A stretch of DNA of 64,000 nt, taken from an uncultured Chloroflexia bacterium. GTDB taxonomy: Bacteria; Chloroflexota; Anaerolineae; JAAYZQ01. The notes under the pieces are model-generated. The model had not been told where the DNA came from. It saw only the letters and a program-made list of their open reading frames with translations, and searched no databases. The number at the start of each line of letters is the position of its first letter. Position 1 is the stretch's first letter. Of this stretch, positions 43,434-46,757 are shown piece by piece. The position numbers were made by a program, and so were the translations under genes. The stretch lies in the NCBI GenBank assembly GCA_963700285.1, contig CAVOXA010000001.1:1056001-1120000 (forward strand). Direction: 5' to 3'.

Positions 43434-44069
43434 CTAGAACTCGGCAGCGCTCCCCTTGTTGGCAGTGGCCACGATGAGACGCAAGAACCCACCGAGCTTG
43501 CTATCTACCCGCTCAACCAGGAATCCAGCCTGGACCAGGTTCTCTTCTGTCTCCCGGTTCAGGTGGCACCGTCCGTTGAATGCGTACCAGGGGATGTTCG
43601 CCAGATCCGATATCTGGGCCAGACCGGCGCGGTGGGGTCGCATGTGCTCCAGGAGGAGTAATTGCCCTCCGGGCGTCGTGAGCACGCGCATCAGCTCGTT
43701 CAAGGTACGCCGCTGATCGACGACGCTGCACAGCACCAGACTGGCCACGACGTAATCAAAGCAGCCTGCCGGAAAGGTCAGGTTTTCCACATCAGATTGG
43801 CTAAAGCGCACAGGGAGTTTGAGTGCCTGCGCTCGCTGCGCAGCAAAGCCCAACATATCGGCGCTTTCGTCGATAGCGGTCAGGCAAACTGAGGGGTGGT
43901 AGAAAGGTAGATTGGCCCCGGTACCCACACCGATCTCCAGTACCTTGCCCCGGGCCCGTGGGAGAAGCTGGCTCCGCAGCTCCCGCAGCCACAGTTTTTC
44001 CAGGGGTGCCATGCCCCGGTCATAGGGCGCGGCGATACGATCGAACGTATTACTCTCAGTCTGTGCCAT
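43434..44069 (-). CDS. Class I SAM-dependent methyltransferase
   Basis: VLEIGVGTG, LVLCSV, LLLEH, CHLNR. Confidence 0.9.
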   Translation of the reverse strand: MAQTESNTFDRIAAPYDRGMAPLEKLWLRELRSQLLPRARGKVLEIGVGTGANLPFYHPSVCLTAIDESADMLGFAAQRAQALKLPVRFSQSDVENLTFPAGCFDYVVASLVLCSVVDQRRTLNELMRVLTTPGGQLLLLEHMRPHRAGLAQISDLANIPWYAFNGRCHLNRETEENLVQAGFLVERVDSKLGGFLRLIVATANKGSAAEF

Positions 44070-44217
44070 TCGAGCCCTGCGCCGTCAGCATCGCCAGCTC
44101 TTCCTCAAGATCCTCAAGTTCAATGATCATGGCTGCTGGCACTGAATGTTTGGGGAGTCGGGCCTCCAGTTCGGCGATCTGTTTCTTCAGTTGGGCGATC
44201 CGTTCATCCTTGCTCAT
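44056..44217 (-). CDS. 53-aa coiled-coil hypothetical protein (PxHS motif)
   Basis: RBS AGGAG; MSKDERIAQLKKQIAELEARLPKHSVP. Confidence 0.65.
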   Translation of the reverse strand: MSKDERIAQLKKQIAELEARLPKHSVPAAMIIELEDLEEELAMLTAQGSNGTD

Positions 44218-44301: not shown

Positions 44302-44330
44302 CTTGACAGGCCCGCAACCCTCTGCTATAC
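44302..44330 (+). promoter_or_regulatory. Sigma70 promoter of the trxA operon
   Basis: TTGACA-17 nt-TATACT. Confidence 0.75.
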
Positions 44331-44338
44331 TGTAGCCG

Positions 44339-44355
44339 ATACCCCTATGGGGTAT
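44339..44355. promoter_or_regulatory. CsoR/CstR/RcnR-type operator
   Basis: Palindrome ATACCCC-TAT-GGGGTAT just downstream of the -10; a CsoR-family gene lies in the operon. Confidence 0.82.
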
Positions 44356-44438
44356 GTCGGTTTGATGCATATCTTATCACGATACAGGCTTTTTGTCAAC
44401 GTTGCGGATGGTTGATGGGCCGAGAACTGGAGGGGCTG

Positions 44439-44909
44439 GTGTCTGGTCTGCTACAAAGGTTGTTTGGCAAGAAAGAGGATGGGAAATCAGAGGCTGTTGC
44501 GACCGCTAGCAGTGAGTCGGTTGGTAATGGGAACAGCGACTCTGATGCCACGGGTGATCTGGATGCCGGCGCGACCGTGTCTGATGCCGAGCCGATCCAT
44601 GTTACGGATGAGAATTTTGACGAGATGGTAGGGAATTCGCGCTTGCCCGTGTTGGTTGATTTCTGGGCGCCCTGGTGTGGTCCGTGTCGCATGGTAGCCC
44701 CGGTGGTAGAAGACCTGGCCAGGGCTTACGATGGACGGGCGTTGATGGCCAAAGTGAACACCGATGAGAATGTGCAGGTGGCCAGCAACCTGGACATCAT
44801 GGGCATCCCAACGTTGATCCTGTTCAAGGATGGACAGGAGATTGATCGGGTGGTCGGTTACGTTCCCCAGCGCGTGCTTGAAGAAAAGCTGAACGCGGCG
44901 TTAAACTAG
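44439..44909 (+). CDS. trxA: Thioredoxin with an N-terminal extension
   Basis: VDFWAPWCGPCR, MGIPTL. Confidence 0.93.
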   Translation: MSGLLQRLFGKKEDGKSEAVATASSESVGNGNSDSDATGDLDAGATVSDAEPIHVTDENFDEMVGNSRLPVLVDFWAPWCGPCRMVAPVVEDLARAYDGRALMAKVNTDENVQVASNLDIMGIPTLILFKDGQEIDRVVGYVPQRVLEEKLNAALN

Positions 44910-44918
44910 GAGGTCTGG

Positions 44919-45350
44919 GTGCACGCTTTTCGGGACAAGACGGGTCGTTTTTTCAGGGAGAATTGGCTCTTTCTGCTCGTCGTTGGTGGAGTCATTGCGG
45001 CATTCCTGGCGCTCCGTACTCCTGCCAGCGCTGTGGGCTCTGTCGCTGAAGTTGATGCTCTGTTGCAGAATGGGCAGCCAACCTTCGTCGAGTTTTATTC
45101 CAACACTTGAGGCTCCTGCCTTTTGGCAAAGCCTGTCGTGGACAGGCTGGAGCGAGATCTGGAGGGAGAAGCACGGGTGCTGCGCCTAAGTGCCTGGGAT
45201 TCAGTGGGCCGCCAGCTCGCCTCGCGCTATGGCGTGCGCGGCGTCCCCACGTTCTTGCTGTTTGATGGTTCGGGACACATGGTCCACTACCAGGTGGGGC
45301 GCCTGGACGCGGACCAAGTCAAGGCTCAGATCAACTTATTGGGGAGGTGA
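44919..45350 (+). CDS. Probable selenoprotein: membrane-anchored thioredoxin (UGSC)
   Basis: ORFs 44919-45110 and 45123-45350 are in one frame joined by a TGA: VEFYSNT-U-GSCLLAKPVV..YGVRGVPTF; N-terminal TM helix. Confidence 0.88.
45130..45148 (+). promoter_or_regulatory. Candidate SECIS (AGCCTGTC-GTG-GACAGGCT)
   Basis: Perfect 8-bp stem with a GTG loop, 19 nt after the TGA. Confidence 0.7.
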
Positions 45351-45354
45351 ACCT

Positions 45355-45579
45355 GTGCCCATCTACGAGTATACCTGCGGAGATTGTCACGAGCAGTTTG
45401 AAAAGTTTGTGCGTTCCATGACGTCGACCGTTGAGGTCAAATGCCCCGTATGCGGGGGAACGCACGTCAAGAAGGGGTGGTCCACATTTGGCACGGGAAA
45501 TGCCGGCTCGGGCTTTAATCTAGCGACATCCGCAGCCAGCAACTGCAGCCCAGGTGGCACCTGAGGCATTCCTCGCTGA
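45355..45579 (+). CDS. FmdB-family zinc-ribbon protein, probably with Sec near the C-terminus (CSPGGT-U-GIPR)
   Basis: PIYEYTCGDC..CPVCG; TGA at 45562 followed by a hairpin. The ORF ends at 45564 if the TGA is a plain stop. Confidence 0.8.
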
Positions 45580-45595
45580 GAGCCGTGGGCTCTCA
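45577..45595 (+). promoter_or_regulatory. Candidate SECIS (TGAGAGCC-GTG-GGCTCTCA)
   Basis: Perfect 8-bp stem with a GTG loop, 12 nt after the TGA; no U-tract. Confidence 0.62.
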
Positions 45596-45653
45596 TATTC
45601 CACAAGTTTCTGCTTTGTTCGATGAAGTTGGGGTTGAGAAGGTGAAGTGGGCT

Positions 45654-45947
45654 ATGGTGCTATCGTCTGAGACTCGGGAAGACATGTTGGCCAGGATGCG
45701 ACGCATCGAAGGGCAGGCCCGCGGCGTGGAGAGGATGATCGCCGAGGACAGAGATTGCCTGGACATACTGACACAGCTGGCCTCGCTGCGTTCGGCGGCC
45801 TACAGCGTCAGCGTCGCATTGACGCAGCACTTTGCCCTCCAATTTGTCCGCGATAGCCGCCAACAAGGCCTGCCTCCCGACCAACAACAGCTTCCTGACG
45901 ATGCCATGCGAAACCTGGTGGACGTGCTGCTGCGGACACCACACTGA
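45654..45947 (+). CDS. CsoR/RcnR-family transcriptional repressor
   Basis: RMRRIEGQARGVERMI..DCLDILTQLAS. Confidence 0.9.
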   Translation: MVLSSETREDMLARMRRIEGQARGVERMIAEDRDCLDILTQLASLRSAAYSVSVALTQHFALQFVRDSRQQGLPPDQQQLPDDAMRNLVDVLLRTPH

Positions 45948-45959
45948 CCACTGAAAGGG

Positions 45960-46136
45960 ATGGGTATTGTGGAGATTTTTGGCTTGAGTGCGGATGTGAT
46001 TCTGGTAATAGGGCTTCTGATAGGTTGGGTGGTGCTGATGCGCTTTGTCCTGCCCCGATTTGGGGTTTCGACCTGAATGAGCGAGTCCTGCGACGCGGCG
46101 TCGCCGCGTGAGGAAAAAGACCAAGTCGCAGATTGA
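45960..46136 (+). CDS. Probable 58-aa membrane selenoprotein (LPRFGVST-U-MSESC), absent from the ORF track
   Basis: RBS-like AAAGGG; hydrophobic helix; in-frame TGA at 46074-76, then 19 further codons including a Cys; hairpin at 46093-46109. Confidence 0.65.
46093..46109 (+). promoter_or_regulatory. Candidate SECIS (ACGCGGC-GTC-GCCGCGT)
   Basis: 7-bp stem with a GTC loop, 16 nt after the TGA. Confidence 0.58.
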
Positions 46137-46160
46137 ATGGAACTCTTTGCATTTTGTCTG

Positions 46161-46196
46161 AAAAGGGCGGTATCTGATACTGATACCGCCCTTTTT
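46161..46196 (+). terminator. Terminator closing the trxA-selenoprotein operon
   Basis: AAAAGGGCGGTATC/GATACCGCCCTTTT stem. Confidence 0.85.
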
Positions 46197-46231: not shown

Positions 46232-46260
46232 TTGACAAAGGCCGGCAACCATGGTACAAT
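46232..46260 (+). promoter_or_regulatory. Sigma70 promoter
   Basis: TTGACA-17 nt-TACAAT. Confidence 0.7.
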
Positions 46261-46316
46261 AGAGGCTGGTGAAAGAGGCCATAAGCGGTTTCACGAGTGG
46301 AGGAGGAGGGAGGGTT

Positions 46317-46757
46317 ATGCTGAATGAGAATCGACCGGTCTACACGATAGGCACAGCGGCCGAACTCTTGAGTGTTCATCCACGCACACTGCGCCTGTAC
46401 GAGGATGCGGGGCTGATTCGCCCGGCGCGCAAGAACAATCGCCGTTTCTATTCGGCCACCGACCTGGAATGGATCAATTGTGTGCGCTACATGATCCACG
46501 AACAGGGACTGAATCAGGAGGGGCTCCGGCGCTTGCTGGCGCTAATTCCTTGCTGGGAGATCAATGCCTGCCCACCGGAGAGCAAGGCCAACTGTTCTGC
46601 TTGGTCAGATCGCACGACGCCCTGTTGGGACCTGGCCCGTACAAGCAGGGCCGAGTCGAAAAAGTGCCACGAGTGCCAAGTCTATCTATCTGCCAGAGAC
46701 CACTTGATGGGTGAGGCAGAGATGGAGGCTGCGCTGAACTATGCAGCGGCCAGTTGA
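46317..46757 (+). CDS. MerR/HspR-like regulator with a Cys-rich C-terminal (two-CW-like) domain
   Basis: YTIGTAAELLSVHPRTLRLYE; CW..C..C..CW..CxxC. Confidence 0.85.
   Translation: MLNENRPVYTIGTAAELLSVHPRTLRLYEDAGLIRPARKNNRRFYSATDLEWINCVRYMIHEQGLNQEGLRRLLALIPCWEINACPPESKANCSAWSDRTTPCWDLARTSRAESKKCHECQVYLSARDHLMGEAEMEAALNYAAAS

Follow-up and report, generated by a model that had tools for sequence, protein, structure and literature searches.

A predicted CsoR-family-controlled thioredoxin operon encoding three putative selenoproteins in the Anaerolineae

Does a compact thioredoxin operon in an Anaerolineae genome encode three selenoproteins that ordinary gene calling hides, and, if so, to which stress does it respond? 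The question is raised by the plus-strand segment 44303-46196 of a 64,000-nucleotide window (C1:1056001-1120000 of the source genome, an uncultured Chloroflexia bacterium), in which a promoter and a palindrome precede trxA, a gene for a transmembrane (TM) thioredoxin, an FmdB zinc ribbon gene, a CsoR-family gene, and a gene for a small membrane protein, followed by a terminator-like hairpin. A first-pass annotation described this segment as a CsoR-controlled membrane redox operon with three hidden selenoproteins, and every element it listed is present, including the U-G-S-C motif of the TM-thioredoxin. The five genes are separated by 9, 4, 74, and 21 nt, in this order, and three in-frame TGA codons fall within 1.2 kb (Table 1). 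Comparison with homologues, which are labelled Anaerolineae by their sources, lends good support to a thioredoxin operon with three predicted selenoproteins and predicted control by the CsoR family, in which one protein family has no library model and one selenocysteine (Sec) site is new.

The three in-frame UGA codons very likely encode Sec, the insertion of which is predicted from the conservation of the codons and of the hairpins behind them. We applied a rule for the selenocysteine insertion sequence (SECIS) simplified from that in PMC13188914, namely a hairpin with a G-first loop 16-37 nt after the UGA; such hairpins start 27, 20, and 23 nt past the UGA of the TM-thioredoxin, FmdB, and membrane protein genes, respectively. 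The rule is passed by 44/49 TGA forms of the TM-thioredoxin, 40/43 FmdB sequences, and 32/38 membrane protein sequences, compared with 38/300 in the genome background, 0/5 Cys forms of the TM-thioredoxin, and, at true stops, 0/13 for csoR, 2/19 for trxA, 4/54 for the TM-thioredoxin, and 9/38 for the membrane protein. All three hairpins have pairs with compensatory changes (96.9% of cells paired for the TM-thioredoxin, with 0 of 500 shuffles; 17 cells for fmdB and 24 for the membrane protein, counts that none of 500 shuffles reached), the structures having been drawn from the same sequences as were tested, which gives them an advantage over slid controls. The claim of three hidden selenoproteins was thus borne out by conserved UGAs with covarying hairpins that behave unlike ordinary stops, as was the remark that standard open reading frame calling mishandles these genes: with table 11, the TM-thioredoxin is split (63 + 75 aa), FmdB ends at its UGA, and the membrane protein is missed at 50 aa. 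Four database matches of the latter protein are 35-42 aa long and cover its pre-UGA part only.

The selABCD genes, whose verification the first-pass annotation had proposed, are all present above the model cut-offs in the source genome (selC being the tRNA-Sec gene). Two of them, selD (C9:56688-57628) and selB (C10:2126954-2128870), are frameshifted in this assembly. These breaks are likely assembly errors because the essential gene lysS (C3:55000-56520) is also frameshifted and because selD is intact, with one TGA, in 3 of the 5 relatives tested, the remaining 2 having yielded no selD.

The FmdB protein (TIGR02605, 48.7 bits against a cut-off of 31.3) has two CxxC motifs with four invariant ribbon Cys, and its predicted Sec lies in a flexible C-terminal tail that reads C-SPGGT-U-GIPR-stop. 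The first stop is TGA in 43/43 distinct sequences, and the second stop, of mixed type, follows 2-7 residues on; in 17/43 the Sec site is two residues before the stop. Three points weigh against Sec here: there is no Cys form at the UGA site among the best 120 homologues, coding conservation past the UGA, though seen for all three genes, covers 2-7 residues in this one, and selB and selD are broken in the source assembly. They would suit the alternative that the UGAs, or at least that of fmdB, are ordinary stops, which we consider barely credible given the invariant TGA beside mixed true stops, the SECIS rule counts given above, the compensatory changes of the fmdB hairpin in non-coding DNA, and the lysS and selD evidence for assembly errors. 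The tail position resembles that in the UXX-star selenoprotein families. Families of that name appear in PMC13188914. The published FmdB selenoproteins, with Sec in CxxU in an ocean survey (TIGR02605; PMC2398784) or in UxxU (PMC13188914), belong to the same zinc ribbon family, whereas the protein described here has no CxxU or UxxU motif, keeps the four ribbon Cys, and places Sec in the tail; PMC11227280 concerns a different FmdB.

The TM-thioredoxin is present in 99/401 genomes of the class, and the 85 matches at E<1e-30 comprise 80 TGA and 5 Cys forms. Two of the Cys-form genomes (G681 and G596, 92-94% complete) yielded no selA, and a third (G484) has selA and keeps TGA in its other two UGA genes. 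The AlphaFold model (pLDDT 88) has a TM helix at residues 16-32 and a thioredoxin fold, and positive charges precede the helix in 18/23 proteins. It resembles known UxxC thioredoxin and thiol:disulfide interchange selenoproteins (PF00085 and PF13098; PMC13188914, Table 1) in the fold, the UxxC motif with which the active-site helix begins, the cis-Pro motif, and the Cys/Sec exchange, but has an N-terminal membrane anchor and the motif SNT-U-xx-C, and no dedicated NCBIfam model matched it. The neighbouring trxA encodes a short conserved N-terminal segment, predicted to be amphipathic and present in 12 of the 15 loci shown, followed by an acidic linker; in trxA of the source genome's own family this segment may bind the membrane. 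Elsewhere in the genome, a DsbA-like frame of 619 codons (C10:238027-239900), whose UxxC motifs hold two in-frame UGA codons, lies right behind the csoR-copZ-copA genes, and a CcdA-like gene is found about 8 kb beyond it.

For the small membrane protein, GTG 45969 is the probable start, giving 55 aa as in its homologues; a TM protein with U-MSES-C had been correctly described, albeit with a length of 58 aa. No model in Pfam or NCBIfam matched it, and its family comprises 735 clusters in the protein library; in the best 150 of these the UGA site corresponds to Cys in 103, the protein end in 21, Trp in 18, and other or unparsed in 8, and both Cys of U/C-x4-C are invariant in 84 aligned Cys forms. 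Cys/Sec interchange, suggested as a check by the first-pass annotation, is therefore seen for this protein and for the TM-thioredoxin (5 loci), but not among the best 120 homologues of FmdB. The gene occurs in 22/41 relatives, each time with one TGA, and in 51/401 class genomes, of which 48 have TGA and 3 gave weak matches with no internal stop. A pattern scan of metagenomes gave at least 120 matches, with 110 TGA and 10 Cys forms among the matches listed and a locus G+C of 0.38-0.71; among these, 90/109 scorable TGA forms passed the SECIS rule versus 3/10 Cys forms (Fisher p=0.0009, in a test in which kin are not independent and the search pattern itself fixed motif residues). A phylum-sample scan (16 candidates scored per genome) found 6/401 including the source genome, one of the five others being false (L081), and a scan of species genomes with a pattern requiring Cys returned one stretch and no loci. 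In the AlphaFold model of a Cys form (pLDDT 71, tail unsure), a single helix leads through a kink into a short helix carrying both Cys, and a fold search with this model gave no match. Positive charges lie behind the helix in 18/22 proteins, and this bias, opposite to that of the TM-thioredoxin, predicts opposite membrane sides for the two. The YgaP-like TM domain (PF11127) is a frequent neighbour, the C-terminal part of which is weakly similar to this protein over 17 columns (hhalign 73% with 5 sequences and 14% with 12); the membrane protein differs in having no Pfam match and one helix instead of two, any homology being tentative. Two further homologues are of note: the database protein P0142, in which the Cys form runs into a thioredoxin, is a candidate fusion or read-through, and a distant TGA-bearing homologue (L077:1483-2185) is followed by a putatively AhpD-like frame with C-x2-TGA, which gave no Pfam match.

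Within the class, 12 genomes carry the complete five-gene order at a single locus, namely 8 of the 23 in the source genome's own order plus G039, G484, G551, and G522, in keeping with the cluster conservation that the first-pass annotation proposed to check. Others lack csoR, trxA, or the membrane protein, and the TM-thioredoxin and membrane protein genes occur together in 30 genomes; this part-wise occurrence indicates a modular unit. In 80 metagenome loci with flanks, the genes no farther than 3 kb from that of the membrane protein include FmdB (17), YgaP-like TM (11), thioredoxin (11), ArsR (9), rhodanese (8), and TauE (5) genes, with CsoR in 0 of 80. In distant members of the phylum, the membrane protein gene stands behind genes for rhodanese, DUF302, and ArsR or CsoR.

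The CsoR-family gene belongs to a group that lacks the copper-type His. Among 120 homologues, the fingerprint is x-C-Y-C in 79, x-C-F-C in 36, x-C-F-F in 2, and one of three others in 1 each, so that x-C-x-C without His is found in 115/120 and the copper-type x-C-H-C in 1/120, Tyr or Phe taking that place instead. The second Cys is kept in 116/120 and is Phe in the window protein and in one database protein 98% identical to it. In PMC8643695, the x-C-x-C motif is tied to persulfide sensors and His to Cu sensing. The source genome has a separate copper CsoR (x-C-H-C), whose gene lies together with copZ and copA downstream of another palindrome, and the metal sensing proposed at first pass is weakened accordingly. 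The operon palindrome lies beside the -10 box, and 2 of the 7 TM-thioredoxin loci without it are at contig ends; it fits the general TAC-x9-GTA CsoR type (PMC3902906) and thus marks the family rather than the inducer.

Control by the operon's own CsoR, as opposed to control through a CsoR-type operator, is less secure. The operon-type repressor gene is present in 11/23 genomes of the order, and the operator is kept in seven relatives without a csoR in the operon, of which one has a clade member elsewhere and one is 71% complete. A second dithiol CsoR (C10:762017-762694, L103), with x-C-F-C, is encoded ahead of a trxA gene with the same operator; such regulators form their own clade, precede trxA in 16/16 loci, and have x-C-F/Y-C with the operator in 14/16, and the two relatives with His (L299 and L308) have no operator. 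This second CsoR likely supplies sensing where the operon copy is absent or has one Cys, and may be the real regulator. A loose operator motif had 11 matches genome-wide compared with 10-14 in three shuffles, and since there is no excess only promoter-adjacent sites were taken as leads. Two of these precede genes for a small 2x[4Fe-4S] ferredoxin (C10:1632498), of the same kind as a neighbour of the TM-thioredoxin in the class, and a CoA-binding protein (C15:122158), which are candidate regulon members.

We tentatively propose, at somewhat under an even chance, that the operon is a reactive-sulfur (persulfide/polysulfide) stress module combining selenol-thiol pairs with a dithiol CsoR-family switch. 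A two-cysteine CsoR-family repressor would become cross-linked and leave the palindrome behind the promoter, turning the operon on; in this strain, where the operon repressor has one Cys, the second dithiol CsoR (C10:762017) would do the sensing. As fast selenol-thiol pairs, the three predicted selenoproteins would accept sulfane sulfur or disulfides and then be returned to the reduced state by the thioredoxin system. The predicted layout has TrxA and FmdB in the cytoplasm, the U-x4-C of the small protein at the inner membrane face, and the UxxC thioredoxin domain outside; this domain would be fed by CcdA and TrxB encoded elsewhere. Reactive-sulfur or disulfide stress is suggested because neighbours elsewhere include rhodanese, YgaP, TauE, and TrxB genes, and the removal of sulfane sulfur by Streptomyces thioredoxin systems (PMC9952706) counts for the reactive-sulfur reading. 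The UGA and SECIS sites, gene order, operator position, His-less two-Cys repressor type, and neighbours on which this reading draws come from sequence comparison, and from them we infer co-transcription, the inducer, and the chemistry of the individual proteins. A bolder version, which we regard as less likely than not, places the membrane selenoprotein and the Sec-tailed zinc ribbon at the centre of a widespread and so far undescribed system for carrying sulfane sulfur. The former would be a selenol-thiol acceptor bound to the membrane and the latter a selenol arm that swings, the two shuttling sulfur between membrane rhodanese/YgaP/TauE and thioredoxin; the sensors would belong to the CsoR family in Anaerolineae and to the ArsR family elsewhere, and an outward-facing seleno-thioredoxin would be added to attack extracellular polysulfide.

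Several observations count against the reactive-sulfur module and bring its rivals into play. Sequencing runs gave short contig pieces only, and none from RNA bridged genes; the topology was predicted from charge counts; of the 80 metagenome loci, many are short or lack all eight families counted; and the absence of excess in the loose operator motif has been mentioned, as have the frameshifts of selB and selD. Among class neighbours of the TM-thioredoxin (42 hand-picked of 220 neighbour frames), none encodes a rhodanese, sulfide:quinone reductase, or persulfide dioxygenase, and the regulon in the class therefore resembles a general thioredoxin system. A general disulfide or oxygen-stress regulon, in which peroxide or disulfides oxidise the dithiol CsoR and thioredoxins are switched on with no special link to sulfane sulfur, has an appreciable if minor chance. 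It would account for the class neighbours found (TrxA, TrxB-like reductases, a PDO-Trx fusion, a Grx-reductase fusion, and the small ferredoxin), for trxA behind the second CsoR in all its loci, and for the two-Cys CsoR of Thermus, which is cross-linked by H2O2 and responds in vitro to H2O2 and Cu(II) (PMC10318464), but not for the rhodanese, YgaP-like, and TauE genes that accompany the membrane protein and FmdB outside the class, and in the operon neither a peroxidase nor a catalase was seen.

A copper or soft-metal response, with selenol-thiol pairs binding Cu(I) or Hg(II) and a metal-sensing repressor, is distinctly unlikely. The operator sequence is also compatible with the Streptomyces copper CsoR consensus (PMC3902906), the membrane protein is found next to an x-C-H-C CsoR in one distant locus (L078), and a Cys-rich MerR-family gene lies behind the operon in many relatives; against this, His is absent in 119/120 repressor homologues, the copper CsoR with copZ and copA has its own operator, and no CopA or CopZ matched in the 80 metagenome and 50 genome loci (130 in total). 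We rejected the assignment as a copper operon because His is missing, copper has a circuit of its own, and no Cop genes lie nearby. Less probable again is selenium handling, that is, selenite reduction or selenide carriage with the Sec parts reporting selenium supply: three Sec sites in 1.2 kb and the ability of rhodanese-type and thioredoxin proteins to handle selenium (PMC13188914) would suit it, but Cys forms are common for two of the three proteins, including in two genomes without detected selA, and the neighbour clusters showed no sel gene. The self-contained membrane relay suggested at first pass, here taken to lead from TrxA by way of the FmdB tail, and then of the small membrane protein, to the thioredoxin outside, is very improbable as a closed system, despite the single gene order in 12 genomes and P0142 joining the membrane protein to a thioredoxin, because its parts occur separately (30 genomes shared among 51 and 99) and the single-helix membrane protein, with U-x4-C behind the helix, is predicted by charge to lie opposite the thioredoxin domain; there is also no reductase in the operon. 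What stands of that suggestion is a redox role near the membrane.

Compared with known systems, the locus is closest in type to the CstR-controlled cst operons of Staphylococcus, Enterococcus, and Streptococcus (PMC8643695) and to TTHA1953 of Thermus (PMC10318464), with which it shares a PF02583 repressor without His, of the two-Cys type in the family though not in this strain, a promoter palindrome, and putative sulfur or thiol targets. It differs in the His position (Tyr/Phe in the operon-type repressor versus Asn in streptococcal CstR), in the targets (thioredoxins and three predicted selenoproteins, the operon having neither a rhodanese nor a dioxygenase), and in the one-Cys repressor of this strain. 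The selenoprotein operons tso and sao (PMC13188914) likewise contain at least three unrelated selenoprotein genes, and the present operon differs in including a repressor. Membership in tso or sao was rejected: no Tso or Sao model scored above its cut-off, TsoB was approached through the Trx fold only, and TsoY was not found in the genome. By motif and NCBIfam scans, no entry fitting the membrane protein or the tail-Sec FmdB was found in the part of PMC13188914 consulted, and literature searches yielded no paper on the operon or on a CsoR-controlled selenoprotein cluster, in agreement with the earlier statement that the combination is not described as a system; subscription papers were mostly outside reach, and the tso paper or BSepDB Table S2 may list the proteins.

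To a catalogue of 119 families (PMC13188914) the locus would contribute one new Sec site and at least one selenoprotein family that lacks a library model, both invisible to gene callers, in a compact regulated operon from an abundant sediment class. The Tyr/Phe-type dithiol CsoR clade has an inducer that can be tested through the 17-bp operator, and the natural Cys and Sec versions of two of the proteins allow a direct test of the benefit of selenium in sulfur or disulfide stress.

Table 1. Features of the predicted operon, in window positions.
Feature	Position	Strand	Evidence
Sigma-70-type promoter (-35, 17 nt, extended -10)	44303..44331	+	11/12 consensus matches; similar boxes before operator in relatives
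CsoR-family operator, TAC-x9-GTA palindrome right behind -10 box	44339..44355	.	In 20/27 TM-thioredoxin loci; fits Streptomyces CsoR consensus (PMC3902906)
trxA, WCGPC thioredoxin, probable start GTG 44439, alternative 44415	44439..44909	+	TIGR01068 above cut-off
Membrane-anchored thioredoxin, predicted U64-x2-C67 (TGA 45108-45110)	44919..45350	+	Pfam Thioredoxin
Predicted SECIS hairpin of TM-thioredoxin	45131..45147	+	Compensatory changes in 3/7 pairs
FmdB-family zinc ribbon, Gly/Ser/Ala tail, predicted end C64-x5-U70-GIPR (TGA 45562-45564)	45355..45579	+	TIGR02605, PF09723 above cut-off
Predicted SECIS hairpin of fmdB, mostly beyond true stop	45577..45595	+	Compensatory changes in 5/6 pairs
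CsoR/CstR-family repressor; x-C-Y/F-C in family, x-C-F-F here (codon 45843-45845)	45654..45947	+	PF02583; alignment to solved CsoR and CstR
Small single-helix membrane protein, predicted selenoprotein, U-x4-C (TGA 46074-46076), alternative start 45960	45969..46136	+	Homologue comparison; without Pfam/NCBIfam model
Predicted SECIS hairpin of small membrane protein	46093..46109	+	Compensatory changes in 4/6 pairs
Terminator-like hairpin, then T-rich tail	46160..46196	+	15 pairs, -25.2 kcal/mol

The hairpin at 46160-46196 was not among the results of a consensus terminator scan. Behind the operon, positions 46232-46757 (plus strand) contain a strong promoter of their own and a MerR/HspR-like regulator gene with a Cys-rich C-terminal domain, which is found in the same place in most members of the source genome's family and in some other families. 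The divergent upstream genes on the minus strand encode a 53-aa coiled-coil-like frame without a family (44059-44217) and a SAM methyltransferase (43434-44069).

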